Shown here: positions 8,133 through 58,892 of the stretch, piece after piece
Numbering within the stretch: position 1 is the stretch's first letter
How the letters are laid out: every line of letters begins with the position of its first letter
DNA from: a virus
Lineage: Duplodnaviria; Caudoviricetes
Length of the DNA stretch: 62,288 nt
Strand: one strand, 5' to 3'
IMG/VR virus record: IMGVR_UViG_3300032286_000962
Span: 1-62,288 of that record
Position numbers and translations under genes: made by a program
The notes under the pieces: model-generated
What the model saw: the letters and a program-made list of their open reading frames with translations, nothing else
What the model was told of the DNA's origin: nothing
Database searches by the model: none

Positions 8133-8906
8133 ATGCCAACGATTCAGGATGCCAATACCAAGATCACAAGTTTCCCAAACAAATTTGTGAGTCCATGGGG
8201 AAATGATGCGATCACTCCATTTTACTCGTCCATGCCTCTAAAGACGCCAGTAGAGGGATGCTTGGAGTGCATCGTTTGTGGAACTTCAGTGGACAGGACT
8301 CAGATTGTGGCGGACGAAAACTTATCTAGAGTTCAAATTACCAACACGTATGTTCCGTCTGAAATTTTTACTGGATCAGAGGGAGACCAAGATTGGGGCA
8401 ATATTTTAAATTGGACTGATAATAATGGAGCTCAATCCACACTACTTCCCAACGATCTTTCAGAAGTAGAAATTCAGTCTAGTATTTCCACTAATTCAAG
8501 TGGGACTACTGGATATTGTTACTCTTTGACAACCTCAAATAATGCTTCTATTTCAGGCACATCTATTAACTGCATACAAGAAGCAACATTCAATGGAAGC
8601 TCAACTTGCATGGGATTTGACCCAGAGTTTACTTTAACTTCTCCAATAACTTATTTTAAAGATGAGTCGTTTTGTAATGGGAATGTTTTTGGAGACGTTG
8701 TTTTCAGTGATACTGCTGTGATGAATGGATTCATTGGAGACCCCGGCGAAGAAATCTATGTTGAGATCCACGGAGACGTAATTTTTACAGAGAACTCTGA
8801 AGCCAACTACGGAAAAGTTTTTGGAAACGTAGACGTGTACTCACCAGCTCAAAATCCAATTTGGCTTACTGAAGTTACTGGTACAATAACCTACCACGGG
8901 TATTAA
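8133..8906 (+). CDS. Virion appendage protein, paralog A
   Basis: Shares a ~50-aa N-terminus with the next gene; the C-terminal part has beta-helix-like GxVxGxVxF repeats. Confidence 0.6.
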   Translation: MPTIQDANTKITSFPNKFVSPWGNDAITPFYSSMPLKTPVEGCLECIVCGTSVDRTQIVADENLSRVQITNTYVPSEIFTGSEGDQDWGNILNWTDNNGAQSTLLPNDLSEVEIQSSISTNSSGTTGYCYSLTTSNNASISGTSINCIQEATFNGSSTCMGFDPEFTLTSPITYFKDESFCNGNVFGDVVFSDTAVMNGFIGDPGEEIYVEIHGDVIFTENSEANYGKVFGNVDVYSPAQNPIWLTEVTGTITYHGY

Positions 8907-8912
8907 AATATC

Positions 8913-9554
8913 ATGCCATCCATCCAGACAGCATCGATTCCAGTGACGTCATTCCCCAATGAGTTTGTGTCGCCTTGGGGCAATGACGAGGTAATTCCCT
9001 TGTACTCGTCTGTTCCTCTTAAAACTCCTGTTGTAGGTTGTTTGCCTTGTGTGGTTTGCGGAAATTCTAATACTCGGTATCAGATTATTTCTGGAGCTGA
9101 TCAAAACCAATCAGGATTCCTAGCAGGATCCCAATCAGGATCCCAACCTATATTAACTATCTCACAGCCGGGAATTTGGTTTTCTGGATTTATAACCCCA
9201 TCCAACAAATATCAGACCGCTGTTTTATTCGATTGGGACACGTGTTTATTTAGTGCTGGAATTTTAGACTATTCGGAAACTCCACTTTTAGCTGATGGAA
9301 ACTCTCTCAATTCAGTTCCATGGTTGGTTGATGGACATGTAAAATTAAAAGCAGTTGGGGAAGATGTCGGAGAAATTATAGAATCTACTGGAGGATATGC
9401 ATCTTTGTATCCAGTAGGAACGACTTTGCCAATTTCCAGTATTTTTAACGAAAATAATTATCCACAGATAATCGACGACACTCATAGGTCTCTTGAGGGA
9501 GGCCCATTTTGTGGTAATCCAACTGGTGCTTATGTGCAGTGTGCCCTCTACTAA
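8913..9554 (+). CDS. Virion appendage protein, paralog B
   Basis: N-terminus SFPNEFVSPWGND...YSSVPLKTPVVGCLPCVVCG is homologous to the 8133 gene. Confidence 0.6.
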   Translation: MPSIQTASIPVTSFPNEFVSPWGNDEVIPLYSSVPLKTPVVGCLPCVVCGNSNTRYQIISGADQNQSGFLAGSQSGSQPILTISQPGIWFSGFITPSNKYQTAVLFDWDTCLFSAGILDYSETPLLADGNSLNSVPWLVDGHVKLKAVGEDVGEIIESTGGYASLYPVGTTLPISSIFNENNYPQIIDDTHRSLEGGPFCGNPTGAYVQCALY

Positions 9555-13114: not shown

Positions 13115-16100
13115 ATGGGATTCCTTGAAGAACTGGATCAAAAATACCCTCAAGAGACCCCAAAGGAGGAACCCACTAAGCCTAGTGGTTTCCTTGGGGA
13201 GCTAGAGAGTAAGTACAAGGATGCTCCCGTGGAGCAGCCGAAGTCGTTCTTGAGTGATTTGGAGCAGAAGTACGACGTAAATCCAGACTCTCTACGCAGC
13301 AGGAAAGAGCGCGGCGAGCCGCTTTCCGAGGATCAGGAGCGAGTTATCTTCGACGCAGACCGAGCCCGCAGCCTTGGAGAACAAGCAGCTGCAACTGGCA
13401 AGGGAGTCTTTACTAGTCTCAGTGAGATGGTTCCCCAAGCATTTGAGGGATCGAAAAGAATCATAGGCGCTAACAAGGATCTTCTTAAAGAAATTGGAAT
13501 CAAATACCTAGACGTCAATCCACTTGTTCCAGAGATTGCGGTCAACTACATCGCGGGCAACACGGCTGAAGACAGAAAAGATGCTCTGGAGAAGGCCGCT
13601 AAGAAAGAGTCGGAAACCGTCAGGTCATTGGCGTCTGGCGCAGTTCAGGCTGGTGAAGAAGTAATCAACGAGGCCGCACGTGGTGCGTTCTTCGGCACTC
13701 CCCTCACAGATCTCGTTCAGGAGTACCCCACTGGCAAATTGGCAGTCGAAGCCATGAAGGCTGGTGGCCCTGTAGGATTCGCCAGTGAACTACTGAGTCA
13801 AAAGATTTTTGGAGAACCGCTAGTTGACCTGAAGCCGATCACGAAGGACGAGTCGTTTTTGAGATCTAGACAGCGTGAAAGTATGCGCCAGCAGGAGCAG
13901 CAGGAGTACAAAGATCTGCCAGAACGAACCACAGCGGCGTTGGTGAAGCTAGCCGAAAGCTCCGTCGGTTCTGCGCTTGGCAAGTCTTTGGGAGTTCCTT
14001 CCGACGAGCAGTTCCAAAAGGACTTGGTTCAGGAGCTGAAAAACAACGCCATCGTCCCAGACAAGGACATTGCCATGATCGGCAATATGTTGAGTCCGCT
14101 CGACCCTACTTTTATCTTGGCTGGGCCGCTGGCTAGGGCGTCGTCAAAGGCGTTTGACATAGCATCGGGAGCTGGTCTGCGAGCTATTACCAAGCCGACG
14201 ATTGCTGGAATGAATCCCCTCGAAGCGACTGGACGTGTGATACGATTCGGCGGAGAGGGCGCACAAAATGTTGCTAGAAAGTTCAGCGACTTCCTAACTG
14301 GGTCAGAAGACAGCTTCATCGGCAAGCTGGCGGATCCACTTGTAGCGGTTACCAAACGCCCCGGCATGATGGTCGAGGGCGCTGGACGTGCTCTCAGGGA
14401 CATCGGACGTCAGATCGACGACGTCGGAGTACGCTCTCGTACGGGAATCATCGAGCGTGCTGGACAGGACGCACGTTCTGGAGACTTTATGCGTACGGTC
14501 TTCGGATCTGGCACCGAGAAGGCTCAGGCCAGAGCACTTAAAGCAGCCGAGAAGCTCGCTGGTGAGGGCGGAGAGGCTGGCGTTCCAACGTCAACACTAA
14601 GCTCAAAGCGACTAGCAGCCGCTAGAACTGCGGACTGGGTATTCAGACAGGCCGAAGCCATAGCGCGTTACGGAACGAGTGGTGCTGCCATCGGAACCGC
14701 TCTTGGACTGCCAGACATCGAGAACGCGGAGCAGCTTGGACAGGTGGCCACCACTGGAGCCATGGTCGGTGCTATCGGCGGTATGAGACTTGGGGAGAAA
14801 GGCGCAAAGATAATCGATCCTAGGGTTTCGCTGAAAGGAAAGATCGACGCTATCCTAGCGGATGATCCTGTCTCAAGACGCGCCGACGAGGACGCCGACA
14901 TCGAGCGTTTCCGCAATACTGCATCTCCAGACATCATCAACAAGGCCGACGAATTGGGAAATATCAATTCCGTTCTGCAATCTTTTGATGGGCATATCCA
15001 GAATCTGACCGCACAACGCGACCAAGCAATTGCTCGTGGAGAAGGCGACGTCGCCGCTGGCATAGAGCTAGAGATTCAGAAGACCATTGCCAGCAAGGAC
15101 GCGGTCTCCAAGATGACTCCAGACGCCGCGAAGGAGTACCAGCGTCGAGTTGATCTCACGCTCTCGGACGCGCTAGACCAAGCCAAAACCACTGGCGAGG
15201 CGGTGGGTCTCAACAACATCGAGATCAAGCTGCTCTCTCCAGTCGAGATGCTGGGTCACCTTCGAGACAAGTGGGGATCGACCCTGACAAACGCGGAGTA
15301 CGTTCTCCAGTCTCTGGCAGGCAACAACGACCTGAGCGACGCGGATCAGCAGAAACTCAATCAGGCGCAGGAGACTGTCAATCAGTTCAACGCGATGTAT
15401 CAGACCGCCATGGGACAGCGGGGATATGCCATGTCTGAGAACACGTATTCGGACAGCCCCATGCATCTGCGTCCAGCGAATCTCAAGACTCCATCGGTCG
15501 TCATCAACTCCGAACTGGTGAAGAGCCAACTCGGAAACAATTTGTACGGAACCCTGCGCCACGAGATCGATCACGCGCTTAGAAACTTCAAAGAAGTAAG
15601 GGCGATGATGGGCCCGCTTGAGGAGTACTTGTTTGGCAAGAAGGTTCAGAACGCTGATGGAAGCATCACCGAAATATCGAAAGGAATTTACGACGACGCG
15701 GCGATCGATCGCATGGGCGATTACTACGCGGATCTTTTGGGCGGAGACAAGTGGAAGGCTGGATTTGCTACAGAAGGTCAGTACAGGGACTACATCAAGG
15801 AAGAGATCCTAGCTGAGGCCGCTGGCCTGTCCTCCAACACGGCCAACCTTCGCGCTGACTTGGACTCGCCCGGTCAAGCCTTCGTCGATTGGGCCGCTAC
15901 CGCCAACAAGAATACTTTGATCGGAAGGATCCGCGACGCGCTCGGTCTCAAGGGCGTGCTGTTAGACGAGTCGGGAGGAATCTCCGACATCCTCGGAGAG
16001 ACGCTCTCTCCAGAGGTTCTCGCACTTACTCGTCAGTACCAGCGCCAGCTTCGAGACTACAACGGATCCTTGTCGCAGATCACTTCTGCCAGTGGGCCAG

Positions 16101-19100
16101 AAGTTACGATCTCAGCTCCTGAGCTGCTATCGAGCAAGATTCTGCAGAACAAGTATCGCGGACTCGACATCTGGCAAAAGGAGCAGGTGCTCACGATCAA
16201 GGACGACGAAGGAAACGTGGTGCGAGAAGTCGTAGTGCCTCAGTCCGCGTCTCTAAACACGCTTGTCGGACAATACCGACTAGAAGGTGGAATGCTTGTG
16301 GACGAGAACGGAAACAAGATGCAGATCGCTCCTGAGATCGCTGCAGCCAATCTTCCAGACAACACCAACCTCTCTGTTGACCAAAGAATCGCAAGAAATC
16401 CAGACGGTTCTCCGAAGATCCTATCGAATCGAGAGATTCAGGCGCGTGCTAGGAAGCGTGGACAAGTCCTTAGAAACGCCATCGAGGGCGCTGTGGAGGA
16501 CGGATCGACAAACCGAGTCCGACCAGTCGGAGAGGACGAGTACGCTGGGATTCTGAGTCCGAGTCAGATGCAGGCGATCTTGGAACTTCCCAACGACATC
16601 GTGTCTCCAGAGTTGAAGCGCAAGATTGTAGCTTTCAACGAGGTGTGTCTCCGCAAGGACGGAACACGAATGATCGTCGAGTACCAAGCGGCCCTGAAGG
16701 GTGGCAAGTACAAGGCACTGGCTCCAAAGATCCGCGATGTTGTTCCTTTTGGATTCCGTATCACCAAGGACGGAAACTTCTTAGCGACCACAATTTCCGT
16801 AAGTAGAATTTTCGACAAGATCAACGCGTGGGCGAAGCCCAACAGGAACAGGTTGAACCTTTGGAACGGAGACACCAACGCGTTGTGGGAAGACATCATT
16901 CACGTTCTCAAGAATCACCAGAAGGGCGAGCGCGGAGAAGTCGGACTCGACGTTGATCCCGACATGGCGAAGCTCAAGAAGGATCGAATCAACGACATCT
17001 TCAATCTCTTCGACAAGGCCACCGAGGCCAACAATCCCGATCGTTCCGTAAGCAAGACTCGCAAGGGTCAAGACTCAATCGACCGAGTGATCATGGGCAT
17101 GAGGATGGATCGTGTGAATGATTTCGCTGTCTCCAACGCTCAGAAGCTGCCAGTAGATTACGGCAAGATCAAAGAGAACTACATGCCGTACGTGCCTGTA
17201 GATCCAGTCGAGGAAGCAGGTTTCAACTGGCCACCAGAGGTCGAGGACGCAATCGTTCGAGTTAGGTCGGTGCTGGAGAACCCAGAGAACATGCCTACTG
17301 AGGCCAAGCCCGAAGCACCGCTTCCAGTCAACCTCTACGAGTCGGGAACTAGCTTGGAGTCCTTTGGATCTGATTCGCTGAAAGAGATTGCCAAGTACTA
17401 CGGCGTACCTGTCCCAGAGAAAGCTGGCAGAGGCGAGATCATCGACCTCGTTCAAAACCAAAAGTCTGGAGTACAATTCAAGCCAGTGGTGCCCGAAGAC
17501 GGCAAGGAGTCTAAGTTCGCGTTCACGACTTCAACAACTCGCAACGACGAGATAAAGAGGTTGATAGCTAATGGTGACGAAGACGGTATCAGGAACCTGA
17601 ACAGGACTACCATTCTCCACGTTCTCTCGGACTTGAAGAACGTCAACGTGTCGATAGAAGACGCCAAGGGCGTGTATCAGGGCGACAAGGAAATCTCTTC
17701 CATAGTTAAAGTAAGAACCAAGAACGACGAGGACTTGAACAAAGTCAGAAGCAGGCTCGCGGATGCCGCGAAGCTCTTCCAGCAAATGGAATTTTTGGAA
17801 GAGAAATTAAATGGTGGAGACCGAGAGTTGCTCGGTCAGGTCGACGATGAGGGGTACAAGCACATCGGAAGCGCCACATTGTTTACGGACGGCGTTACGG
17901 AGCAGCAGATTGAAACGGCTAGGAAATTGGCTGGCATCGACGGATTAACGCTTGCAGATGGAAGAGTTGAGCTGTATGACAGAGGTGATGATCCAGAATT
18001 CTTCAACAGAGTTGCAGCCTTTGACAGAGCAATCCGACAAGCTGGAGGTATGGTCGCATCGTCTGAAACAGGCGTTGCAGCAGTCAAATCCTACAGTGAG
18101 GATCCGCAACAATACCAAGGCACCATCGGATACGACGACGAGTCGCTTTCTATTCATTCCGCAAAAGGCGAGCGAGACCGACTCAGCACGCCCCTCGTAA
18201 CAAAATTGCTCGGCCTGCTGGGGAGGCCGCTGGACGCCCTAGAAAACGGAAAGAGGTCGTACTTCGAGGCGGTAGACCTGACGCCAAGACAGGTCAAGAA
18301 GCAGGTAGACATAGCGGATAGGTTCAACGACCTGCCAGTCAACGACCTCGACAATCCTCTCGTACAGAAAGCGTACCAACGACTCAGCGAGGAGATTCTC
18401 AAGCAGTACGATAGTCTTGTGGCTGGGCCTGATGGCACGAGATTTACGAGCCAGCTATGGTCTGAGGGCGGAGAGCCCTACAAGTCTTCCGCAGAAGCGG
18501 TCAAGGACATCCAAACGAACAACTCGCTGAAGTTCCTGAAGACAGATCCCACTGTTTTCGGGCCAGAGGGAGTTGACTTCAGCTTCCATCCGCTGCTCGA
18601 AGATAGCGGAAGGAGAGACGCAAACGGAGTTCCCTTGGTCTACAACGATTTGTTCAGGGCCGTCCACGACGCGATCGCACACGGTTTATTCGGCGCTGAG
18701 TTTGGGCCGATCGGAGAGGAGTCCGCTTGGCAGACTCACCTGCGAACCATCGACGATCCTTGGGCTCGCTGGGCATTGACTAGTGAGACGAGGGGTCAGA
18801 ATTCGTACGTAAATTATCGTCGTGAGATGCTCAATGAAAACGGCATGCCGATCAAGAAGGGGGAGGAAGGATACATCCCACTTGAGAAGCGCGGATTCGC
18901 CGATCAGAAAGCTGCGTTGCTCCCTCTCACCGATTCGATGACTGGCAACGCGAAGGTCGACGAGCCCGTCAAAAAGCTGATGGAAGAACTTGGGCCTGAA
19001 GAGTCCATGGGAAGCTACGCTGGGCCAGCGTTCAAGCCAGCAAACATCACTCGTAAAGTCGGAGCTAACGAAGACTTCATCACGATACCCGAAGAGAACG

Positions 19101-21622
19101 CCGCTAGGTCTGCGCTGAACAGCAGCAAGCAGCCAAAATTCGGAGCCGCCAGAGAGCTTAAAGCTGGATATCCAGTGGCACTGCGAATTGATATTCCTGC
19201 GTTCAAGTCAACTGGCAACTACGTGGTGACCGTTCACGAGAAGGGAACTCCCAGCAAGGTCGGTGAAGTCATCGGGTACGACACAATCGCACGCATCGAC
19301 AATCCCCAGTTCATGTCCAACGAGACTGGAGCGGAGAAGATTAAGAAGGGCGAGAGCAACAAGTTCCCGATCGCCACGGTGGCTGGTGAATTCAATCCAT
19401 CTCGCGAGATGCCTGCAGACATCAACGACTGGACACCAGTCGGATTTGATCCTAGCGAACATTCGTACTTCTACGACAAGGCGACCGACGAGCTTGTGCT
19501 GGGCGGAGACGAGGCCGTGAGTGTTGGGAATACGGTCTTCGTTAAGAATCCAGTCTACGGCGACAAGGCCACGGCTAGGTTCATGCCTGCAGCACGCAAG
19601 GGCGACTCGCCAGCCTCCACTCTCTCAAAGGACGAGCGCGACGCCGCAGTCAAATTCCTCGAACGCGGAACACTCACCGCAGCCAACGTCTTGGACTCGC
19701 TCGCAAAGCTATCCAACGGCGACATGCAGTCCATCACCGAGAAGCTCTCCACGGGACGTCTATTCGAGCTCGCACACCGAGCCACTGGCACTCCTATCCT
19801 GAACCGCGTCGATGCGATCTCCGCCATCCGCAGGGAGATCAACAATCGCAAGGAAGCAATGCCTCAGAGCAACATTGCAGCACCCATGGCCGACGACATC
19901 GTCCGCACTCCTGTCAATCGTCAGGCCGCTCAGGGCGTGTCCTACCAGCCAGCCACGAATGTCTCTACAACCGAGATCGCTCCTGATCCCAAGGACAAGG
20001 CCGCGACCGCAGCTTGGAGCAAGTTTGACGAGGAGTCTCGCAAGCGAGTTGAGGAACAAGTCGGTAAAAACGCAACCGCCCAATCAATCAGAAAAGCAAT
20101 CGCCCAAGAGCGAGACAGGATTCGACGCTACTCCAGCACCCCCGACGCCGCAGGCATGAAGACGTTGATGGCGGACGCGACCGCCGAGGGCGAGGTCGCT
20201 GGCGAGGAGTTCAAATCGGAGCCGCTGCTGGTACGGAGCGACTACGTGACGAGGGCGGACGGCTCCAAGAAGTACAAGGACGTGGTCGAGAAGTCTCTCA
20301 CCGACCAGCCTCTCGTCGTTCCTCCAATGCCCAATACGCTGATCACAAAGGAAAACAATCCCTTGGCGCTCAAGAGCAAGAACGTGGCGGGGCTCAAGGC
20401 TGGTCGCTACCAGAAAGAGATCGGAGACCGCATCGACGCTGGCGCTGCACGCATCGCTGATGACCCAGAGATCCTAACCAACACGACTGGGTACGCGGAG
20501 TACATGCGCGACATGGGCGTGACGGGAGACATCCTGACTCCGCCGTCCGCACTCAAGATGATGCTGACAAATCCCGACCAGACGCTCGCGCTTCTGAAGG
20601 GCGGATACCACGGCAACAAGACCGTCGCTGGCACCAAGGAAGCTGCAATTCAGGGGCTCGATGGAGTCGCCGAAATGCGTAGGATTCTCAACGGCCAAGG
20701 CCCGACGCCGCTCGTTACCGCGCTTCACCATTTCTGGGGCACGCTGTCCAAGCAACTTCCTCCGATACAGCAGGAGGCTCTCTGGATGCGTTTAATTTCC
20801 AACCCGCTTGTCATGGAGCAGATCCAAAATTCGATCGACGGAAAGTACACGCTTACGCTAGCTCAATGGAAAGCGGTCGTGCAGAAGGCCAAGACCCAGA
20901 ATCAGGGCAACTACGGAAAGTTTGGAAACAACGCGACGGCCAACGCCAACTCGTTCCATCTGATGCTTGCAAATCACAATGGAAAGTGGGATCAGGTCGC
21001 AAACGTCTACAAGAACGACGACTCGGTAGCCATGAGAAACGAGTTCTGGGGGCTCGGACATGGCCCGACGGGAATCAAGAACAAGGTGCAGAGCTTCATT
21101 GGTCTGACCTTTGGAATTCCATCGAACATCCTCGACCGCTGGAGATTCGTAAGCCTCAACCTTCCCATGCTCATGAACATGAAGAAGTCGCCAGCCGCGC
21201 CTGAGTTCTTCGAGTACAGCGGTCGCAACAAGACGGTTCCAACCGATCCGATCGGAGTCTACAAGAACTACGGAACGGTCGAGAACGACAACGTGCCTCT
21301 CAGCATCGCGCTTTACTCAGGACTCGATCGCGCTGTTCAGGCGGGCATCGACAACAGCCCAGCGCTGAAGGAGTACCTTGGGGCGCATGCGAACCCCGGT
21401 GGCTTCCACTGGATCGACTGGAACGCGATCAAGAACGAAGCGGTGGGGCATTCCTCACTCGACATCACCAAGTCGTTCCTGACGCAGTATGGCCGCGATG
21501 CGACCGCCTCCGACTTCCTCGACCACGTCAAGAAAACCTCGATCTACACCGAGGGCGAAAACAAGGGCAAGATTATCCGATTGAAGATGGACGGCGGAGT
21601 CTTTAGCATGGAAGAACAATGA
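13115..21622 (+). CDS. Large polyvalent internal virion (ejection) protein, 2835 aa
   Basis: Zincin motif LRHEIDH...EEILAE, a second FRAVHDAIAHG domain, glycine-zipper segments and multiple appended domains; last gene of the ejection cluster. Confidence 0.8.
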   Translation: MGFLEELDQKYPQETPKEEPTKPSGFLGELESKYKDAPVEQPKSFLSDLEQKYDVNPDSLRSRKERGEPLSEDQERVIFDADRARSLGEQAAATGKGVFTSLSEMVPQAFEGSKRIIGANKDLLKEIGIKYLDVNPLVPEIAVNYIAGNTAEDRKDALEKAAKKESETVRSLASGAVQAGEEVINEAARGAFFGTPLTDLVQEYPTGKLAVEAMKAGGPVGFASELLSQKIFGEPLVDLKPITKDESFLRSRQRESMRQQEQQEYKDLPERTTAALVKLAESSVGSALGKSLGVPSDEQFQKDLVQELKNNAIVPDKDIAMIGNMLSPLDPTFILAGPLARASSKAFDIASGAGLRAITKPTIAGMNPLEATGRVIRFGGEGAQNVARKFSDFLTGSEDSFIGKLADPLVAVTKRPGMMVEGAGRALRDIGRQIDDVGVRSRTGIIERAGQDARSGDFMRTVFGSGTEKAQARALKAAEKLAGEGGEAGVPTSTLSSKRLAAARTADWVFRQAEAIARYGTSGAAIGTALGLPDIENAEQLGQVATTGAMVGAIGGMRLGEKGAKIIDPRVSLKGKIDAILADDPVSRRADEDADIERFRNTASPDIINKADELGNINSVLQSFDGHIQNLTAQRDQAIARGEGDVAAGIELEIQKTIASKDAVSKMTPDAAKEYQRRVDLTLSDALDQAKTTGEAVGLNNIEIKLLSPVEMLGHLRDKWGSTLTNAEYVLQSLAGNNDLSDADQQKLNQAQETVNQFNAMYQTAMGQRGYAMSENTYSDSPMHLRPANLKTPSVVINSELVKSQLGNNLYGTLRHEIDHALRNFKEVRAMMGPLEEYLFGKKVQNADGSITEISKGIYDDAAIDRMGDYYADLLGGDKWKAGFATEGQYRDYIKEEILAEAAGLSSNTANLRADLDSPGQAFVDWAATANKNTLIGRIRDALGLKGVLLDESGGISDILGETLSPEVLALTRQYQRQLRDYNGSLSQITSASGPEVTISAPELLSSKILQNKYRGLDIWQKEQVLTIKDDEGNVVREVVVPQSASLNTLVGQYRLEGGMLVDENGNKMQIAPEIAAANLPDNTNLSVDQRIARNPDGSPKILSNREIQARARKRGQVLRNAIEGAVEDGSTNRVRPVGEDEYAGILSPSQMQAILELPNDIVSPELKRKIVAFNEVCLRKDGTRMIVEYQAALKGGKYKALAPKIRDVVPFGFRITKDGNFLATTISVSRIFDKINAWAKPNRNRLNLWNGDTNALWEDIIHVLKNHQKGERGEVGLDVDPDMAKLKKDRINDIFNLFDKATEANNPDRSVSKTRKGQDSIDRVIMGMRMDRVNDFAVSNAQKLPVDYGKIKENYMPYVPVDPVEEAGFNWPPEVEDAIVRVRSVLENPENMPTEAKPEAPLPVNLYESGTSLESFGSDSLKEIAKYYGVPVPEKAGRGEIIDLVQNQKSGVQFKPVVPEDGKESKFAFTTSTTRNDEIKRLIANGDEDGIRNLNRTTILHVLSDLKNVNVSIEDAKGVYQGDKEISSIVKVRTKNDEDLNKVRSRLADAAKLFQQMEFLEEKLNGGDRELLGQVDDEGYKHIGSATLFTDGVTEQQIETARKLAGIDGLTLADGRVELYDRGDDPEFFNRVAAFDRAIRQAGGMVASSETGVAAVKSYSEDPQQYQGTIGYDDESLSIHSAKGERDRLSTPLVTKLLGLLGRPLDALENGKRSYFEAVDLTPRQVKKQVDIADRFNDLPVNDLDNPLVQKAYQRLSEEILKQYDSLVAGPDGTRFTSQLWSEGGEPYKSSAEAVKDIQTNNSLKFLKTDPTVFGPEGVDFSFHPLLEDSGRRDANGVPLVYNDLFRAVHDAIAHGLFGAEFGPIGEESAWQTHLRTIDDPWARWALTSETRGQNSYVNYRREMLNENGMPIKKGEEGYIPLEKRGFADQKAALLPLTDSMTGNAKVDEPVKKLMEELGPEESMGSYAGPAFKPANITRKVGANEDFITIPEENAARSALNSSKQPKFGAARELKAGYPVALRIDIPAFKSTGNYVVTVHEKGTPSKVGEVIGYDTIARIDNPQFMSNETGAEKIKKGESNKFPIATVAGEFNPSREMPADINDWTPVGFDPSEHSYFYDKATDELVLGGDEAVSVGNTVFVKNPVYGDKATARFMPAARKGDSPASTLSKDERDAAVKFLERGTLTAANVLDSLAKLSNGDMQSITEKLSTGRLFELAHRATGTPILNRVDAISAIRREINNRKEAMPQSNIAAPMADDIVRTPVNRQAAQGVSYQPATNVSTTEIAPDPKDKAATAAWSKFDEESRKRVEEQVGKNATAQSIRKAIAQERDRIRRYSSTPDAAGMKTLMADATAEGEVAGEEFKSEPLLVRSDYVTRADGSKKYKDVVEKSLTDQPLVVPPMPNTLITKENNPLALKSKNVAGLKAGRYQKEIGDRIDAGAARIADDPEILTNTTGYAEYMRDMGVTGDILTPPSALKMMLTNPDQTLALLKGGYHGNKTVAGTKEAAIQGLDGVAEMRRILNGQGPTPLVTALHHFWGTLSKQLPPIQQEALWMRLISNPLVMEQIQNSIDGKYTLTLAQWKAVVQKAKTQNQGNYGKFGNNATANANSFHLMLANHNGKWDQVANVYKNDDSVAMRNEFWGLGHGPTGIKNKVQSFIGLTFGIPSNILDRWRFVSLNLPMLMNMKKSPAAPEFFEYSGRNKTVPTDPIGVYKNYGTVENDNVPLSIALYSGLDRAVQAGIDNSPALKEYLGAHANPGGFHWIDWNAIKNEAVGHSSLDITKSFLTQYGRDATASDFLDHVKKTSIYTEGENKGKIIRLKMDGGVFSMEEQ

Positions 21623-21819
21623 GTGCCTTTCCATCAGACAACGTAGAAGACGTCGGAGAAATCGACGACACGATCGCCGCTATGATCGAGCTCGAAGAGA
21701 CGCGACTGAAACGAAAGCTGACCAAGAAGGAGCTCAAGGAAATCGTGTCCAGCTTGACTCCAGAGGATCAGGACGACTACGAGGGCGACGGTGGATATTT
21801 TCCTGAAACCGAAGCCTGA
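21619..21819 (+). CDS. Hypothetical small acidic protein
   Basis: ATGA overlap with the upstream gene. Confidence 0.6.
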   Translation: MSAFPSDNVEDVGEIDDTIAAMIELEETRLKRKLTKKELKEIVSSLTPEDQDDYEGDGGYFPETEA

Positions 21820-21864
21820 AACGACTTTACGCAAACCAACCAACCAACCAACCACCTATTAACC

Positions 21865-22008
21865 ATGCCACTTAAACAATGCGCCTCCCAGAATTGCTTT
21901 GAACGCAACATCGCCTCAGAAGTTCGTTCTGGAAAACCTGTAAAACAAGCTGTTGCCATCGCTTATAGCGTCAAACGTCGGGCTCAAGCAAAGGCTAGGA
22001 AAAAATAG
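21865..22008 (+). CDS. Small basic phage protein (47 aa)
   Basis: Manual translation MPLKQCASQNCFERNIASEVRSGKPVKQAVAIAYSVKRRAQAKARKK; the MPLK...GKPxKQAVAIA pattern is common in phages. Confidence 0.75.
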   Translation: MPLKQCASQNCFERNIASEVRSGKPVKQAVAIAYSVKRRAQAKARKK

Positions 22009-22018
22009 TCGCGTCTAA

Positions 22019-22642
22019 ATGCGGATAGAAATCAAGGCAGTCGATCCGATCGCGATACGCGAAAAATCCGTCTGGATGAAGGACGGATCGCTGCAGGTTC
22101 TTGTTCCCGATTACGGAAGAAATCGGGACGGCGCTTTTCTTTTGGCAATTCGAGAAGTTGTCGATGCGTGGAGACGTCGCAAGTTGCACCTGAAAAAGGA
22201 GCACCAGTTCCACGAGACGAACGCAGCCGACGAGATCGAAAAAGAAGTCGCAAGTGCGATCGAGGTCGATTGGTCGCAGCACGAAAAGTGGGTCGAGAAT
22301 TCGTACGACGAAGTCGCTCGCAATAGTGCGATAGAAGCTCCAAGAATTTTACTTCAAGGCCCACGCGCTTGGGCCGAATTGCATCTCTTCGCACTGCGAC
22401 ATGAAGCAACGCGTCAGGGCGTCAGTGCAGCAGCATGGTTTGCAGATTGGGTCGCGGATCTTCCATTCGATGGTTGTCCATGCAAGGGGCACCTGCACGA
22501 ATTTCTAGCGCACAATCCACCAGACTGGGATCGGTTTTTTTCGTGGTCAGTCAACCTGCACAACGCGGTGAATGCGCGTACTGGAAAACTCACGATCGGC
22601 CTCGATGAGGCGCGTGAGCTTTGGTCTTCGCGGTTGTTCTAG
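22019..22642 (+). CDS. Erv1/Alr-like FAD-linked sulfhydryl oxidase domain fused to an N-terminal domain
   Basis: GPRAWAELH...GCPCKGH...FFSWSVNLHNAVNARTGK matches the Erv/Alr pattern GxxxWxxxH / C..C / WxxxxHNxVN, with CxC in place of CxxC. Confidence 0.8.
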   Translation: MRIEIKAVDPIAIREKSVWMKDGSLQVLVPDYGRNRDGAFLLAIREVVDAWRRRKLHLKKEHQFHETNAADEIEKEVASAIEVDWSQHEKWVENSYDEVARNSAIEAPRILLQGPRAWAELHLFALRHEATRQGVSAAAWFADWVADLPFDGCPCKGHLHEFLAHNPPDWDRFFSWSVNLHNAVNARTGKLTIGLDEARELWSSRLF

Positions 22643-22669
22643 CCTCTAGAGCTAGTGTTTATGCGGGTC

Positions 22670-22738
22670 AAAAATAATTAAAACTTTTTGTTGCGTACCG
22701 AAGCGGAATAGGCAATACTCACTCCAGTCAGTAACAAC
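22670..22738 (+). promoter_or_regulatory. Early sigma70-like promoter with UP element and spacer operator
   Basis: AAAAATAATT UP tract, then TTGCGT-17-AATACT; near-identical copy at 39728-39796. Confidence 0.7.
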
Positions 22739-22771
22739 ACAACCAACCAACCAACCAAAGGAACCAACAAA

Positions 22772-23173
22772 GTGAACACACAACTACCAGTCCTCAATCA
22801 GCTCGTCATCAAGGCGCTCGAAGTCATCGGCCACCCAGCCTCGATCGCCGAGATCTGCAACGAGATCGAACGTCAGGGAACCCGCTTCACGCAGAAGCAC
22901 CCACGTCAGGAGGTCTACACCCGCATCGGAAAGTTCCGTGGGATCCGCAAGATCGAAGCGGCCCTCTACGCTCTCGAAGAGCAGCCAGAGGTCTACGTCG
23001 AGTACGTCGGACAGCGTGAGGGCGAGGAGCCCTTCGAGATCAACGGTCAGCGCTGGCAGTACGTCAACGTCCTCGACGGACAGGGCAAGCGCGACATCGG
23101 CGTCTACAGCTTCGGCGAAGACCGCTGCTACAACTACAGCGTCTGGCGCAGCCGCGAGCTCGCCATCAACTAA
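22772..23173 (+). CDS. Early protein with N-terminal winged HTH (HARE-HTH-like)
   Basis: IKALEVIGHPASIAEICNEI...PRQEVYTRI pattern; GTG start. Confidence 0.5.
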   Translation: MNTQLPVLNQLVIKALEVIGHPASIAEICNEIERQGTRFTQKHPRQEVYTRIGKFRGIRKIEAALYALEEQPEVYVEYVGQREGEEPFEINGQRWQYVNVLDGQGKRDIGVYSFGEDRCYNYSVWRSRELAIN

Positions 23174-23200
23174 TCAACCTCAACCAAGGAGACCAAACCA

Positions 23201-23923
23201 GTGAACCACATCATCAACACAACAGCAGTCACACGCGTCTACAGCGACGCAGGACGCAGTGCAGCGGACAAGCTGCACAACGACACCAACTCCTGCACCG
23301 TCAACGCTCTCGCCAACACCACGGGCTGGGAGTGGAACCTCTGCCACGACATCGCAGCCGAGTCAGGGCGTAAGCGTGGCAAGGGCCACGATCCTGTCAA
23401 GCTGCTCAAGCACGCGGGGCACTACGGCGTCAAGAGCCGACGCCTCACGCGGATCAAATCGAGCAACTCGTGGACGGTGCAGAAGTTCATCAAGAAAAAT
23501 CCCACTGGAAAATTCTACGTGTGCTCATCGCGGCACGCGTTCGCAATCGTTGACGGCGTCGTCAAGGACTGGCTGCACAACGGCGACCTCGTGCGAATCG
23601 TGCAGGCGTGGCGCATCCTCGACTCGGTCTACAACAACCGCAAGATCGAGGTGCCAGTGCACAAACCGAAGCCACGTCCTGCAGCACGCGTCAAGCGCGT
23701 CGAGTTCGCGCTCCGCCTCAAGGACGTGAACGGCGATTGCTACGACGTGGATTACTTCGAGTCACGTGCGGCTGCGTTGAAGGCGGCTAGGGCTTATCAG
23801 CTCGACGCCGAAACTCCGAGCGTCGAGGTCGAACGCGTGACCATCGGACAATACGATCACACCACCATCTTCGAGAAAACATTGATAGATGGTGTCGTAC
23901 ATGTCGACTGCGGAGCCGCATAA
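23201..23923 (+). CDS. Early protein, possible papain-like Cys/His fold
   Basis: NDTNSCTVNALA...HAFAIVDG motif order. Confidence 0.45.
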   Translation: MNHIINTTAVTRVYSDAGRSAADKLHNDTNSCTVNALANTTGWEWNLCHDIAAESGRKRGKGHDPVKLLKHAGHYGVKSRRLTRIKSSNSWTVQKFIKKNPTGKFYVCSSRHAFAIVDGVVKDWLHNGDLVRIVQAWRILDSVYNNRKIEVPVHKPKPRPAARVKRVEFALRLKDVNGDCYDVDYFESRAAALKAARAYQLDAETPSVEVERVTIGQYDHTTIFEKTLIDGVVHVDCGAA

Positions 23924-23933
23924 TTACAGGCTC

Positions 23934-23997
23934 AAAAATAATTTAAAATTTTTCTATACAACCGAACCAGATTCGCTATTCTCACTCTTGTCAGTAA
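23934..23997 (+). promoter_or_regulatory. Early promoter copy
   Basis: AAAAATAATT...TATACA ACCGAACCAGATT...TATTCT...GTCAGTAA. Confidence 0.65.
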
Positions 23998-24027
23998 ATA
24001 CTAACCCTAACCAAAGGAACCAACACA

Positions 24028-47489: not shown

Positions 47490-47501
47490 CGACAATACTT
47501 T
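47473..47501 (+). promoter_or_regulatory. Sigma70-like promoter for the tRNA locus
   Basis: TTGACA-17-TACTTT. Confidence 0.65.
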
Positions 47502-47517
47502 TATCAATCAATTTTAC

Positions 47518-47588
47518 CACGGGTTCGTCTAACGGTAGGATCCCAGCTTCATACGCTGGGGATGGGAGTTCGATTCTCTCACCCGTCA
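47518..47588 (+). tRNA. tRNA with CAT anticodon (Met or Ile2)
   Basis: Manual cloverleaf: acceptor ACGGGT/ACCCGT with C1:C72 mismatch, anticodon arm CCAGC-TTCATAC-GCTGG, T arm GGGAG-TTCGATT-CTCTC; no encoded CCA. Confidence 0.8.
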
Positions 47589-47592
47589 TTTT

Positions 47593-47670
47593 CCAACCTA
47601 CGAGTGTAGGAACTGGATACGAGGTCGCTGCTGGTGGGTGGGGAAGCCCAGACCAGCGGCGGCTTCATCC
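47593..47670 (+). ncRNA. Unidentified structured RNA between the tRNAs
   Basis: Hairpin CCTAC-GAGT-GTAGG, then a long hairpin GAGGTCGCTGCTGGT/ACCAGCGGCGGCTTC with G-U pairs. Confidence 0.5.
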
Positions 47671-47672
47671 GA

Positions 47673-47746
47673 TACCCTGTAGTGTAATGGTAACACTTCA
47701 GTTTTTGGCACTGACATTCATGGTTCGAGTCCATGCGGGGTAGCCA
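47673..47746 (+). tRNA. tRNA-Gln(TTG)
   Basis: Acceptor TACCCTG/CGGGGTA, anticodon arm TCAGT-TTTTGGC-ACTGA, T arm CATGG-TTCGAGT-CCATG, G73 and encoded CCA. Confidence 0.93.
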
Positions 47747-48282: not shown

Positions 48283-48864
48283 ATGGCCAAGCCCATCGAA
48301 GGAATGATCCCACCTAACGGGTGGCATTACTACCAAAGTGATGTCAAGCTAGTCGGAGATTCGCTCAACGATTTGTATAAAGTCGTTGAGAATTTTCGTG
48401 CCGACAACTCGTACCCAGCTGGGGATGTGAAAGGCGATGTGGATAACTACATCTGCGGAAACTATCCATCCTTCTGCCATGGGGTGGACAACGTCACGAT
48501 CAACATTCTGAGCAGGCAAGCTGCCACTCGCTCAGGAGAACTGCTGCAGGACGTCTCGACGTGGGCCAACAACATGCTCCGATCCAAGGAGCCGATCAAA
48601 CTTGTTCAAGACGACGAGGCGGAGCGACGCGCCAAGATTTGCCAAGCGTGTCCCCACAACGCTAGCTGGCGATCGGGATGCATTTCATGTATCGTCAATG
48701 CTGACCGCGTCAGTGCATCAGTGCGTCAGGCTAGGGATACGGACACCTCCAAGAAGCTGGGTGGGTGCCACTTGCTGAGGCACGACAACAGGTCTGCTGT
48801 ATTCTTTGAGAAAGAAAATCTTGCAACAACTGGCAATTTGCCTACTAATTGCTGGCTAACGTAA
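48283..48864 (+). CDS. Cys-rich protein upstream of the portal
   Basis: PPNGWHY, ERRAKICQACPHN, CISC and LPTNCW. Confidence 0.7.
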   Translation: MAKPIEGMIPPNGWHYYQSDVKLVGDSLNDLYKVVENFRADNSYPAGDVKGDVDNYICGNYPSFCHGVDNVTINILSRQAATRSGELLQDVSTWANNMLRSKEPIKLVQDDEAERRAKICQACPHNASWRSGCISCIVNADRVSASVRQARDTDTSKKLGGCHLLRHDNRSAVFFEKENLATTGNLPTNCWLT

Positions 48865-52693: not shown

Positions 52694-53971
52694 ATGTCAA
52701 ACGATACAGAAAACGACAACGTAGTCCCAGAATCCAACGCCATCAATGGCATGCTTGGAGCACCATCACTCGATGCGGATCCCATCGAGGAGTCAACATC
52801 AGACCTCCTAGACTCGCTGCTAGATAGCGCAGAGGGACTTAATACCGAGAGTGCTCCTGAGACTATTGAGACTCTTGAAACGATCGAAGAGGAACTTCCT
52901 TTGGAAGACGTGGCTCCAGCTCCCGTGGAGGAAGTTGTTACAGAAGTAGCTACAGAACCAGTCGCGACACCAGAAGTTGAGATCGACCCAGAGATCTCAT
53001 CGATCCCTCAGCCTCGCAATCTGTCCGAGGCCAACCAGAACAACTGGAAGAAGCTGCAGGAGACCGCGACCAACTACAAGAAGCAGGCCGTGGAGGCCGA
53101 ACAGCTTCGTCAAAAGGTTCAGGAGCTTGAGCAACGCCCAAGCCAGACGCCTCCCGACTACGAGGAGCTCAAGAAGTTCCGCGCTATCTTCGATACCGAG
53201 AACGACCCAGAGTTCAAGAGCAAGTACGACGTGCCCATCGCGAACGCGAAGGAGAACATCTACAACATCCTCAAGAAGAATGGAGCTAGCGACGACGTCA
53301 TCAACTCGATCGAGTCCGCTGGTGGCCCTGACAAGATCAGTCAGGAGTGGTGGAAGAGCCAAGCCATCGACAAGCTACCCATGATCGATGCGGAGCGCCT
53401 GAAGAAGGATCTCTTCAACGTCATCGACCTCAAGGAGGGACGCACGAAGGAGATCGGAGAAACCGCTGAGAAGCGAGACGAGTTTCTTCAGTCCCGTCAA
53501 AACGAGCTCGTTGAAAACTTCAAGAAACAGAACGAGGAGATCTACAGCCACACCGATCAGATCACGAAGGAGATTCCATGGGCTCGGTACAAAGAGATCA
53601 ATCCAAACGATCCACCAGAGGTTCAAGCCGAGACGCAGAAGCACAACGCGACGGTTCAGGATCTTTCCAACAAGTTTGAAGCCGCCCTTTGGCCCAAGAC
53701 TCCGCAGGAACGCGCAGACGTCGCTGCTGCTGCATCTGGTTTCCACGTAGTTGTTGGACAGCTACGCTACGAGCAGGAAGCCAAGCAGGCGATGCAGGCA
53801 AAGGTGGACGCCCTTACCAAGGAGCTCACCGCGCTGAAGAATGCGGGAAGGATGCCGAAGGCCAATCCGACTCCAGCCAATGCCAAACCAAGCACAAACG
53901 TCCAAGACCGCATCAAGATGAACGCCAGCGACGCGATTGATCTTGGTCTAGACGAGGCTAGCGGTCTCTAA
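52694..53971 (+). CDS. Putative capsid scaffolding protein
   Basis: Acidic disordered N-terminus and long coiled coils, between portal and MCP. Confidence 0.65.
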   Translation: MSNDTENDNVVPESNAINGMLGAPSLDADPIEESTSDLLDSLLDSAEGLNTESAPETIETLETIEEELPLEDVAPAPVEEVVTEVATEPVATPEVEIDPEISSIPQPRNLSEANQNNWKKLQETATNYKKQAVEAEQLRQKVQELEQRPSQTPPDYEELKKFRAIFDTENDPEFKSKYDVPIANAKENIYNILKKNGASDDVINSIESAGGPDKISQEWWKSQAIDKLPMIDAERLKKDLFNVIDLKEGRTKEIGETAEKRDEFLQSRQNELVENFKKQNEEIYSHTDQITKEIPWARYKEINPNDPPEVQAETQKHNATVQDLSNKFEAALWPKTPQERADVAAAASGFHVVVGQLRYEQEAKQAMQAKVDALTKELTALKNAGRMPKANPTPANAKPSTNVQDRIKMNASDAIDLGLDEASGL

Positions 53972-54960: not shown

Positions 54961-54961
54961 G

Positions 54962-55525: not shown

Positions 55526-55540
55526 TTCCACGTAGAACAG

Positions 55541-56859: not shown

Positions 56860-56864
56860 AAACT

Positions 56865-57683: not shown

Positions 57684-58892
57684 ATGGCTAATAATTGCAT
57701 CGATCTGGCAACAGTCCAGAACTTCGCTTCCAAGGATACGAACCGTATCGTTGGACAAATCGCAAAGGTTCTTGCCCGCAAGAGCCCCTACATCAACTCC
57801 ATCGATGGTGGAACTCTCCCCAACGTCTCCGACGTTGTGCGTTCCGTCGTTGAGGAAATGGCAGTTCCCGCGTCCTCGCTGGCGTCCCCCACCTTCACCG
57901 CTGACATCAATCTTTGCGGTATCGGTGCGACTCCTGACCGCGTAGGTTCGACCGAGTATCAGTTCCAGCTCGCCACCCTCCGTGGTGCTGGCCCACGCGT
58001 CTGCGTCAAGCAAGCCCGTACCGCCTTCAAGGGTTCTTACCTTCAGGCTCAGGTCTCGCTTGAGAAGACGATCCTCCAGCTCATCAACGCTGATATCCGT
58101 TATCAGTTCTTGATCCAGTCTGGTATCAAGTACACCTGCTCCAGCACCAACACCTTCAACTCGAACTTGACTGGTGACATGCAGCAGATCAACACCCAGT
58201 TCTCTGCCAACGTCGTTGACAGCCCGCTGAACTTCAAGACCCTCTACAAGATCGGTAGCTTCCTCCGCGAGGAGATGCTTGCCGAGCCCTTCGCCTCGAA
58301 GGACGGAGAGTTCTTCCAAGTTCTTCTCGGCGCAGACGCCATCGAGAACATCCGCAACGACGCCGACGTTAAGGAGGATCTCCTCTATCTAACCGCTGGT
58401 TCGTTCAAGCTCGGTGAGGAGTCCATCTCTGGTTACCAGTTCATGGGCTATCGTGGGTTCGCCTTCGGTATCGACCAACAGCCTCTGCGTAGCACGGGTC
58501 TTGGGGTTGATGGCAACCTCGTCCTCGTCAATCCGATCATCGCTCAGGCCGTCACCAATGGTTTCGGACAGCGCCGTAACCCAGCTTGGGTGAACGCTCC
58601 CTACGAGGTCGGATTCGTCATCGCAGGCGAGAGCTTCAAGCGTCTCGTTCCTGAGCAGTACGTCGGTGAGGGCACCTTCCGCTTCGCTCCCCAACTTAGC
58701 ATGGGCGAGCTTGAGTGGACGTACTTCCGCGATAACGATTGCAACCTCTACGGAGATTTCGGTCAGCACATCTATCAGATCCAGCGTGCGATCCAGCCGA
58801 TCCGCCCACAGAACGTGTGCGCGATCCTGTTCAAGCGCTGCCCGTTTGATGGTCAGGCGCTGCCCTGCTCGACCTCCACGACTGGTCTGTAA
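57684..58892 (+). CDS. Major capsid protein
   Basis: 402 aa from ATG 57684, strongly biased codon usage, long leader, downstream hairpin and position after portal/scaffold. Confidence 0.8.
   Translation: MANNCIDLATVQNFASKDTNRIVGQIAKVLARKSPYINSIDGGTLPNVSDVVRSVVEEMAVPASSLASPTFTADINLCGIGATPDRVGSTEYQFQLATLRGAGPRVCVKQARTAFKGSYLQAQVSLEKTILQLINADIRYQFLIQSGIKYTCSSTNTFNSNLTGDMQQINTQFSANVVDSPLNFKTLYKIGSFLREEMLAEPFASKDGEFFQVLLGADAIENIRNDADVKEDLLYLTAGSFKLGEESISGYQFMGYRGFAFGIDQQPLRSTGLGVDGNLVLVNPIIAQAVTNGFGQRRNPAWVNAPYEVGFVIAGESFKRLVPEQYVGEGTFRFAPQLSMGELEWTYFRDNDCNLYGDFGQHIYQIQRAIQPIRPQNVCAILFKRCPFDGQALPCSTSTTGL

Follow-up and report, generated by a model that had tools for sequence, protein, structure and literature searches.

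The window analysed here is a complete IMG/VR virus record (IMGVR_UViG_3300032286_000962) of 62,288 bases, with an estimated completeness of 99%, from an uncultured tailed phage of the Caudoviricetes. This text concerns one of its genes, which encodes a protein of 207 amino acids (aa) composed of a weakly zincin-like N-terminal domain and a domain with the Erv/ALR fold of sulfhydryl oxidases (Table 1). An earlier note, made from the sequence alone, had placed an Erv/Alr domain at 22358-22642, and three motifs of this family lie exactly where it had put them: GPRAWAELH begins at residue 114 (nucleotides 22358-22384), GCPCKGH at residue 152 (22472-22492) and WSVNLHNAVN at residue 176 (22544-22573). 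The protein has two cysteines in total, both in the active site, and no shuttle disulfide; neither a signal peptide nor a membrane segment is evident in its sequence. A search of 5.8 billion proteins gave 50 relatives at E <= 0.001, all of them metagenomic and many located on contigs of about 60 kb, and 48 of the 50 carry a precomputed PF04777 label.

The Pfam profile Evr1_Alr (PF04777) matches residues 117-202 over profile positions 3-92 of 93, with E 2.3e-6. The earlier note had proposed this profile as a check, and the window protein passes it marginally, at 28.3 bits against a curated cut-off of 27.6 (29.9 bits in a six-frame search of the whole record), while all 33 aligned family members match as well, with best E 1.9e-9. 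Comparison by phmmer with the sequences of the PDB returned nine Erv/ALR chains headed by pB119L of African swine fever virus (ASFV; 3gwl_A, E 7.6e-7), and the tenth row was an antibody at E 0.85. An AlphaFold2 model of the 207-aa protein, made with 33 relatives as input, had a mean predicted local distance difference test score (pLDDT) of 90.1. Foldseek placed 3gwl_A at the top for this model, with a template modelling (TM) score of 0.76 and a root mean square deviation (rmsd) of 2.2 Å over 106 columns, and its search of predicted viral structures led to giant-virus sulfhydryl oxidases. VIA-align, a structure search independent of Foldseek, gave Z 13.4 to pB119L (rmsd 2.4 Å, 96 residues), 12.5 to Erv1, 12.1 to Erv2 and 11.4 to mimivirus R596. 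Across six Erv structures the Z values ranged from 11.3 to 13.4, followed by QSOX at 5.7-5.9 and by unrelated chains at about 5.5 and below. The absence of an Erv fold, which the earlier note had named as fatal to its proposal, is thus not what either structure search returned. Pfam, the PDB sequence match and both structure searches agree on the domain, and the Erv assignment is solid because the PDB sequence match, the model, Foldseek and VIA-align are independent of the marginal Pfam score. The gene very probably encodes a genuine Erv-fold flavoprotein.

The active-site triplet C153-P154-C155 is invariant in 33 of 33 aligned family members, and so are W118, E120, L121, H122, H158, H181, V184, N185, R187 and W202. 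HMMER alignments match these invariant residues with the W..LH, C..C..H and HNxVN motifs found in pB119L, AtErv1 and ALR. The same alignments place C155 at the second Cys of the CxxC pair and G152 at the first Cys in AtErv1, so the FAD-proximal cysteine (FAD, flavin adenine dinucleotide) has been kept and its partner has moved one residue closer. The canonical CxxC spacing of the FAD-proximal pair was found neither in the window nor in any of the 33 relatives, all of which have CPC, and the atypical CxC described in the earlier note is therefore shared by all the aligned family members. Both cysteines and the equivalents of the FAD-site residues are also invariant in 18 of 18 Erv-domain sequences spanning two phage clades. 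Conservation of these residues suggests that the domain binds FAD.

A homodimer was predicted for residues 105-207 with FAD along (FAD itself unscored), with 0.60 against 0.01 for the best control. For comparison, 20 of the 30 proteins that had been solved as pairs reached this mark, as did 1 of the 23 solved as single chains. Between runs at least 90% of the contacts agree, with pLDDT of at least 86, and the predicted interface is formed by the first two helices and the C-terminus. This pass is no proof of binding and may reflect likeness to solved Erv dimers.

The best match both in sequence and in structure is pB119L. The two proteins are compact, with a single Cys pair and no shuttle disulfide, a lack which is described as common among viral Ervs (PMC3509050). 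Where pB119L has CxxC, the CPC of the phage protein has its first Cys displaced by one residue; the phage protein also carries an extra N-terminal domain, and its host is a bacterium rather than a eukaryote. In the predicted phage dimer the contact is made by helices 1-2 and the C-terminus, while a different dimer surface is reported for pB119L (PMC3509050). The cellular enzymes Erv1/ALR and Erv2 (3w4y, 4e0i, 1jr8, 3u2l) have the same helical-bundle fold (Z 12.1-12.5) and share the W..LH and HNxVN..K motifs with the window protein, for which a homodimer is likewise predicted. However, cellular Ervs are described as having a FAD-proximal CxxC and a second, shuttle pair on a flexible arm (PMC3509050), while the window protein has only its two cysteines in CxC.

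The Cys-x-Cys clade of phage Erv proteins

A scan with the family alignment found relatives encoded on 212 viral contigs. The distant relatives are short open reading frames (ORFs) of 129-209 aa with CSC, CQC, CDC or CPC at the same site. When an Erv profile built across the clades was compared with 1.84 billion cluster representatives, 5130 clusters were matched at E <= 0.001 and 1010 at E <= 1e-10. Among the 150 best representatives, 120 had CxC and 25 had CxxC, and the remaining five had neither motif or were without the HNxVN landmark. The CxC types in these 120 were CSC (36), CDC (16), CPC (13), CAC (12), CGC (9) and others, and phage contigs hold almost all of the loci. The small CxC proteins that were aligned all match Evr1_Alr (39 of 39, best E 1.3e-12).

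A pattern scan of 185,579 prokaryotic species, each represented by one genome, detected five loci, all on contigs of metagenome-assembled genomes (MAGs). Three were of the CGC type on Pirellula MAG contigs, and two were CxxC proteins with other architectures. The contigs of these CGC Erv-like ORFs (L354, L355 and L356) are assigned to two Pirellula MAGs; they hint weakly at a planctomycete host for some of the phages with CxC-Ervs, or may be a binning artefact. Within the limits of this pattern-based scan of prokaryotes, the CxC-Erv clade appears to be essentially phage-borne. Comparison of the window's Erv protein by tblastn with 50,697 phage records gave a single match, a Mollyvirus record. 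Among open-access papers and bioRxiv preprints, none was found that describes a bacteriophage enzyme of the Erv family. According to PMC3509050, Erv oxidases occur universally in eukaryotes and are conserved among giant DNA viruses. The statement in the earlier note that the family is mainly eukaryotic and giant-viral needs revision, given this large phage clade.

What chemistry does the CxC pair perform? One alternative is that the protein is not a thiol oxidase at all, and that its CxC binds a metal or serves other flavin chemistry, or that the protein is a structural or assembly factor for the giant protein encoded upstream or for the tail. The non-canonical spacing of the pair would fit such a role, as would its middle residue, which varies freely (S, D, P, A, G, K and others). 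Against it stands the invariance of both cysteines and of all FAD-site residues across deep divergence, which makes this alternative improbable. Mia40 has a CxC (CPC) as its active motif. CxC disulfides are also redox-active in the Erv2 shuttle, and Cys-X-Cys is listed among the shuttle motifs (PMC3509050).

A second phage lineage places a small CxC-Erv in a different context. The small proteins of this lineage have the same domain with CxC at the same position, are 36-41% identical to the Erv domain of the window, and their gene, as in the window, ends a block of virion genes. Unlike the window protein they are single-domain proteins of about 100-170 aa without the N-terminal domain, and they are always preceded by a protein with 25-48 cysteines. 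There a tail assembly chaperone gene (phrog_25875, E 2.8e-5) is followed by the tape measure gene (phrog_9959, E 5.7e-40), then by two ORFs of about 290 and 111 aa and one of 461-485 aa, and after these by the small CxC-Erv, exonuclease and RecT genes. The 461-485-aa ORF has 37-44 cysteines in the four loci first examined. A wider scan found 271 relatives, and 80 loci were kept (L274-L353). In 77 of 77 testable loci (the remaining three are cut by contig ends) an ORF of 426-523 aa with 25-48 Cys (5.9-9.3%) ends at or overlaps the start of the Erv gene. For comparison, among the remaining ORFs of these loci with 150 aa or more, the median is 1.31% Cys and the 95th percentile 2.6%. The Cys-rich proteins have a median identity of 32% (minimum 19%), and 22 Cys columns are present in at least 90% of members. 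The 77 loci form one broad lineage and represent one association maintained over deep divergence, not 77 independent events. The Cys-rich proteins of L071 and L074 start with MGCFGKCGC, and no significant match to this group was found in Pfam, PHROGs or PDB sequences.

The Cys-rich protein and the CxC-Erv look like an enzyme-substrate pair. This pairing is the strongest contextual evidence that CxC-Ervs may act on Cys-rich structural proteins of phages, and a phage-encoded disulfide pathway is plausible in general because the pairing is invariant in the second lineage. Co-occurrence with a Cys-rich candidate substrate is thus a feature of the second lineage, unlike the lineage of the window.

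Distribution of the gene and the cysteines in the lineage of the window

The lineage was sampled with 25 viral records of at least 57 kb whose major capsid protein (MCP) is at least 80% identical to that of the window. The 402-aa MCP has 801 homologs, the best 120 of them at least 83% identical, and cysteines at positions 5, 78, 107, 152, 353, 379, 386 and 395. Its AlphaFold2 model is poor (pLDDT 47) and was used solely for a coherent result: all 50 structural matches listed are HK97-fold capsid proteins or encapsulins, with best Z 8.5. By sequence, phmmer against the PDB gave chance-level rows, and Pfam and PHROGs gave nothing. A 425-aa protein without cysteines had also been a candidate for MCP and was rejected, its sequence being acidic, of low complexity and coiled-coil-like. 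For these acidic and coiled-coil-like properties it is probably the scaffolding protein; it has no match among the phage records or PDB sequences, and a protein atlas search was uninformative. With tblastn neither of the two MCP candidates matched any of the 50,697 phage records.

A quick search proved insufficient for judging gene absence. As a control, the C-terminal 400 aa of the giant protein were found by it in 1 of 14 records, although the giant protein is truly present in all control records but the truncated G001, and the quick search therefore misses divergent genes. All 25 records were translated whole in six frames and searched again for Erv with hmmsearch --max. G001 does not count as Erv-negative, since its contig ends short of the giant-protein region, and 24 informative relatives were left. 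Eleven of them have the full gene, three have an ORF of about 130-150 aa with the N-terminal domain only, and ten have none.

Where the gene is present its position is constant. In 15 of 15 gene-carrying genomes of the lineage it lies directly after the giant protein, on the same strand, as the last gene of the structural block and at the border with early or replication genes. L067 has another giant protein, and there the gene stands between it and genes for exonuclease, Sak4, SSB and primosomal proteins. The earlier note had called it the last gene of the morphogenesis transcript. This holds for gene position; for the transcript, a scan of 21400-23400 detected no promoter-like sites and four terminator-like hairpins against 3.1 in shuffles, so there is no excess of hairpins to mark a transcript end. 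Among listed sequencing runs, those covering 20500-24000 are four DNA runs of a single study, one of them probably the source of this DNA, and none is an RNA run.

If such an enzyme is made with the virion genes, then we can ask: Do the cysteines of the virion depend on it? According to one explanation this is an obligatory capsid and tail pathway, in which cysteines of the MCP, tail and pre-portal proteins are oxidised and morphogenesis depends on the enzyme, as with poxvirus E10R or ASFV pB119L. The true Erv fold, the position at the end of the structural block and the eight MCP cysteines, six of them essentially invariant, speak for it. The cysteine motifs named in the earlier note are indeed all present: MSCDC in ORF 497-1771, CLECIVC in 8133-8906, CLPCVVC in 8913-9554, a terminal NPC in 6001-8130, the CxxC motifs of the pre-portal protein and the eight Cys in the 402-aa MCP. 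Its description of the virion proteins as Cys-rich is overstated, with 1.09% Cys in the proteome and 2.0% in the MCP. Metal binding would explain the CxxCxxC and paired CxxC motifs equally well, and the pre-portal cysteines would be compatible with it too.

Comparison of orthologs speaks against the obligatory pathway. MCP cysteines 78, 107, 353, 386 and 395 are present in 81 of 81 MCPs and C5 in 80 of 81, and the variation of C152 and C379 is unrelated to the presence of Erv. The pre-portal protein keeps eight of its eight cysteines in 10 of 10 Erv-positive and in 10 of 10 Erv-negative orthologs. Cysteine conservation is alike with and without Erv in the 709-aa protein, the portal-sized protein and terminase, and the percentage of Cys in structural orthologs does not differ between the two groups. 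The same cysteines are therefore kept in ten relatives without the gene and in three without the Erv domain. The earlier note had itself named a lack of co-occurrence with Cys-rich capsids as evidence against its idea, and, since cysteines are conserved regardless of Erv, this is the outcome in the present lineage; its claim that the enzyme oxidises the capsid and tail cysteines of this phage is not supported.

A midpoint-rooted FastTree phylogeny of concatenated MCP, portal-sized protein and terminase (26 rows, support values uninspected) has two clades. In one the gene is present in all 13 informative genomes, and the Erv domain was lost three separate times; in the other, 10 of 12 genomes are without it. 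In five sister pairs the lineage-specific cysteines of the Erv-bearing and the Erv-lacking partner numbered 38 vs 26, 18 vs 19, 18 vs 30, 19 vs 25 and 21 vs 26, so that the Erv-lacking genome has equal or more in four pairs of five; two control pairs of full-gene genomes gave 18 vs 19 and 7 vs 10. The proteome has 1.04% Cys with Erv and 0.95% without (p = 0.06), a difference confounded by phylogeny. A tail fiber gene (497-1771) had seemed linked to Erv, with orthologs in gene-carrying genomes only, and the tree explains this by shared ancestry. Among 773 gene families, none tracks Erv but Erv itself, and neither a partner oxidoreductase nor a co-occurring Cys-rich virion substrate was found in this lineage. 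The gene also does not behave as a conserved core morphogenesis gene of the poxvirus or ASFV type, being complete in 11 of 24 genomes. An obligatory pathway is considered improbable.

Another possibility is that the enzyme is a redox effector directed at the host. It would oxidise host thiols (thioredoxin, low-molecular-weight thiols or a defence protein) or yield H2O2 to condition the cell, and its delivery or synthesis might go along with that of the giant internal protein. The accessory nature of the gene and its place in a variable region, next to a giant protein presumed to be ejected, would suit this role; so would the lack of a phage-encoded substrate in the lineage of the window and the presence of two active-site cysteines alone, with no shuttle disulfide. 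However, no signal of packaging or of early expression was found, and the gene lies after the late genes and not among the early ones. Moreover, what invariably adjoins the enzyme gene in the second lineage encodes a presumed structural protein of the phage, with 25-48 Cys, and this suggests that the substrate is a phage protein. We consider a host-directed role unlikely, if somewhat less so than the other alternatives.

The N-terminal domain, neighbouring genes and features of the window

Residues 1-104 gave weak VIA-align matches (Z 4.0-4.9) to selecase, PprI/IrrE, CapP, YbeY and abylysin, most of the structural matches being zincin-like or related metal-dependent hydrolases. Relatives have H45-E46-x-x-E49...C53 at the site where the window has R45-E46-V-V-D49 and R53. 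An HExxH-type zincin motif is present in neither, since the motif of the relatives is not HExxH either. Compared with the window protein, the N-terminal domain is less conserved than the Erv domain in 32 cases of 32.

In relatives this domain is associated with a second gene, fam2, which encodes a protein of about 430 aa with eight Cys and lies directly upstream, overlapping the start of the gene with the Erv or N-terminal domain. It occurs in 9 of 15 gene-carrying genomes, including all three that have the N-terminal domain only, is missing from the window, and is absent from every genome without the Erv/N-domain gene. No significant match to fam2 was found in Pfam, PHROGs or PDB sequences; a protein atlas places it near clusters named as the biotin carboxylase family, some with GARS_A, which is a lead only to an ATP-grasp protein. 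All nine genomes with fam2 have an intact H45-E46..E49..C53 motif, while all six that have the gene but no fam2, the window among them, have a broken H-E dyad, and losses of the motif or of fam2 represent at least three separate events on the tree. From this we infer two separable modules, fam2 with the N-terminal domain and Erv on its own, with evident constraint in the window remaining on the Erv module alone. The N-terminal domain of the window protein is best explained as what is left of a zincin-like module after decay.

Record G006 (66,054 bases) carries two non-identical fam2-Erv pairs, one at each end of the linear record (30-731 with 725-1993, and 62561-63292 with 63258-64529). Its fam2 copies are 74% and 86% identical to fam2 of G005. 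This arrangement could come from a chimeric or concatemeric assembly or from real duplication.

Table 1. Features of the window and examples of associated genes on related contigs.
Feature	Position	Strand	Basis or remark
Two-domain gene (zincin-like N-domain fused to Erv/ALR-fold domain)	22019..22642	+	Open ORF, 207 aa plus stop
N-terminal domain, residues 1-104, weakly zincin-like, putative metal motif decayed	22019..22330	+	VIA-align, alignment of relatives
Erv/ALR-fold domain (predicted FAD-binding), residues 105-207	22331..22639	+	Pfam PF04777, phmmer, Foldseek, VIA-align
Active-site C153-P154-C155, CxC in place of canonical CxxC	22475..22483	+	Family alignments
Giant 2835-aa protein, 1 Cys, presumed internal virion protein	13115..21622	+	ORF; virion role suggested by position
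(CCAA)n tract upstream of the 47-aa gene	21832..21853	+	Start codon at 21865 just downstream
47-aa protein, two Cys (CASQNC)	21865..22008	+	phrog_2423, E 4.4e-17; ends 10 nucleotides before the Erv start codon
Second (CCAA)n tract, between the Erv gene and gene 22772	22739..22756	+	Just upstream of start 22772
Pre-portal protein, 193 aa, 8 Cys including CQAC and CISC	48283..48864	+	Sequence
Probable scaffolding protein, 425 aa, 0 Cys	52694..53971	+	Suggested by composition and position
Major capsid protein, 402 aa, 8 Cys	57684..58892	+	Structural matches; 801 homologs
fam2 (example in a relative)	L234:3327-4598 (record G005)		Eight other relatives likewise
Cys-rich protein upstream of small CxC-Erv (examples)	L071:7453-8862, L074:8538-9929, L069:8475-9857, L080:8415-9869		73 further loci among L274-L353

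The giant protein has a sole PHROGs match, phrog_3170, of unknown function. Its counterparts in relatives have 2241-4269 aa with 0-2 Cys, and identity among them falls to about 25-59% while that of the MCP stays above 80%. The 47-aa protein in front of the Erv gene was rejected as an Erv partner, having homologs also in the Erv-negative G011, G013, G020 and G022. The two (CCAA)n tracts, which bracket the unit of the 47-aa gene and Erv, are the only such sites in 62 kb (5 overlapping matches against 0.03 expected). Possible roles are those of a leader, a translation element or a recombination site.

Other parts of the window offered several further observations. The adjacent tail-region genes 8133-8906 and 8913-9554 encode a shared N-terminal stretch of about 50 aa ending in CxxCxxC and unrelated C-terminal parts, and similarity of G001 to both products is confined to the N-terminal 59-67 aa. 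They may be exchangeable fibre or spike proteins on a common anchor, possibly with a metal site. Genes for tRNA-Met (CAT, 47518-47588) and tRNA-Gln (TTG, 47673-47746) lie just after the terminase gene, and an 85-aa ORF (47486-47743) which overlaps both is unlikely to be a gene. A block of genes at 53977-57452, which separates the scaffold-like gene from the MCP gene, looks non-structural. Among its products are an S-adenosylmethionine (SAM) methyltransferase (56865-57452; Pfam Methyltransf_23, E 2.8e-9) and a 327-aa protein that matches phrog_1574 at its C-terminus.

Proposed mechanism and meaning of the phage enzymes

The reading we prefer is that the 207-aa protein is a cytoplasmic, homodimeric flavoenzyme of a phage subclass of Ervs, made along with the virion genes. 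A strained and strongly oxidising CxC disulfide would accept two electrons from a thiol pair of the substrate, and these would pass to FAD and onward to O2 or another acceptor. Disulfides would thereby be made in phage structural proteins within the reducing host cytoplasm, before lysis. In the phage of the window the enzyme would be accessory: not obligatory for morphogenesis, and not needed to keep the cysteines of capsid, portal and tail. The N-terminal module of the relatives would work with the upstream ATP-grasp-like gene, lost from the window, where a remnant of the domain is left. To this complete explanation we assign a probability of roughly one half. Sequence evidence suggests that the protein is probably a late-expressed, FAD-dependent disulfide catalyst; FAD binding, oxidation of thiols by a redox-active CxC, late co-expression and a phage structural protein as substrate are the elements this would imply.

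Several results weigh against the preferred reading. The window protein exceeds the Pfam cut-off by just 0.7 bits, and to our knowledge its CxC spacing differs from every characterised Erv active site. The Erv gene is dispensable among relatives (10 of 24 are without the gene and 3 without the Erv domain), and the structural cysteines were shown to be independent of it. No protein comparable to the Cys-rich neighbour exists in the lineage of the window, where the top proteins have 4-6.5% Cys with and without Erv, and no gene family accompanies Erv there. Searching the window by tblastn with the 77 Cys-rich proteins gave nothing. The putative tail role of those proteins comes from synteny, and late expression of the Erv gene is suggested by gene order alone.

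The poxvirus proteins E10R, A2.5L and G4L form a cytoplasmic disulfide pathway. As an analogy only, the phage system resembles it in having a virus-encoded Erv oxidase, a reducing cytoplasm and a gene linked to virion genes. Unlike the poxvirus pathway, it has no partner thiol oxidoreductase that we could find, and its gene is dispensable among close relatives. Bacteria themselves are thought to form structural disulfides outside the cytoplasm.

What is new here is that the CxC centre is not a one-off but belongs to a large phage clade, that a Cys-rich protein is paired with the enzyme in one lineage, that the gene is dispensable in the lineage of the window, and that the window protein begins with a zincin-like domain in decay. 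For the window itself the value is more modest: its protein is a member of this clade, and the capsid-disulfide story is unsupported. We tentatively propose, at slightly less than even odds, that CxC-Ervs are phage-specific cytoplasmic disulfide catalysts. Through a strained CxC disulfide beside FAD they would allow Cys-rich virion parts, for instance tail-module proteins with 25-48 cysteines, to be folded in the reducing cytoplasm of the host with neither a shuttle nor a partner, the window protein being a fused, accessory member. If this is true, CxC-Ervs would be for bacterial viruses what the oxidases of poxviruses and ASFV are for eukaryotic ones, and ordinary phages may come equipped for oxidative folding in the cytoplasm. 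It may also be that the Erv scaffold works with a Cys-x-Cys redox centre, which would bear on the flavin-thiol mechanism and on the making of disulfide proteins in the bacterial cytoplasm. The invariant pairing with a protein of 25-48 Cys offers a directly testable enzyme-substrate system.

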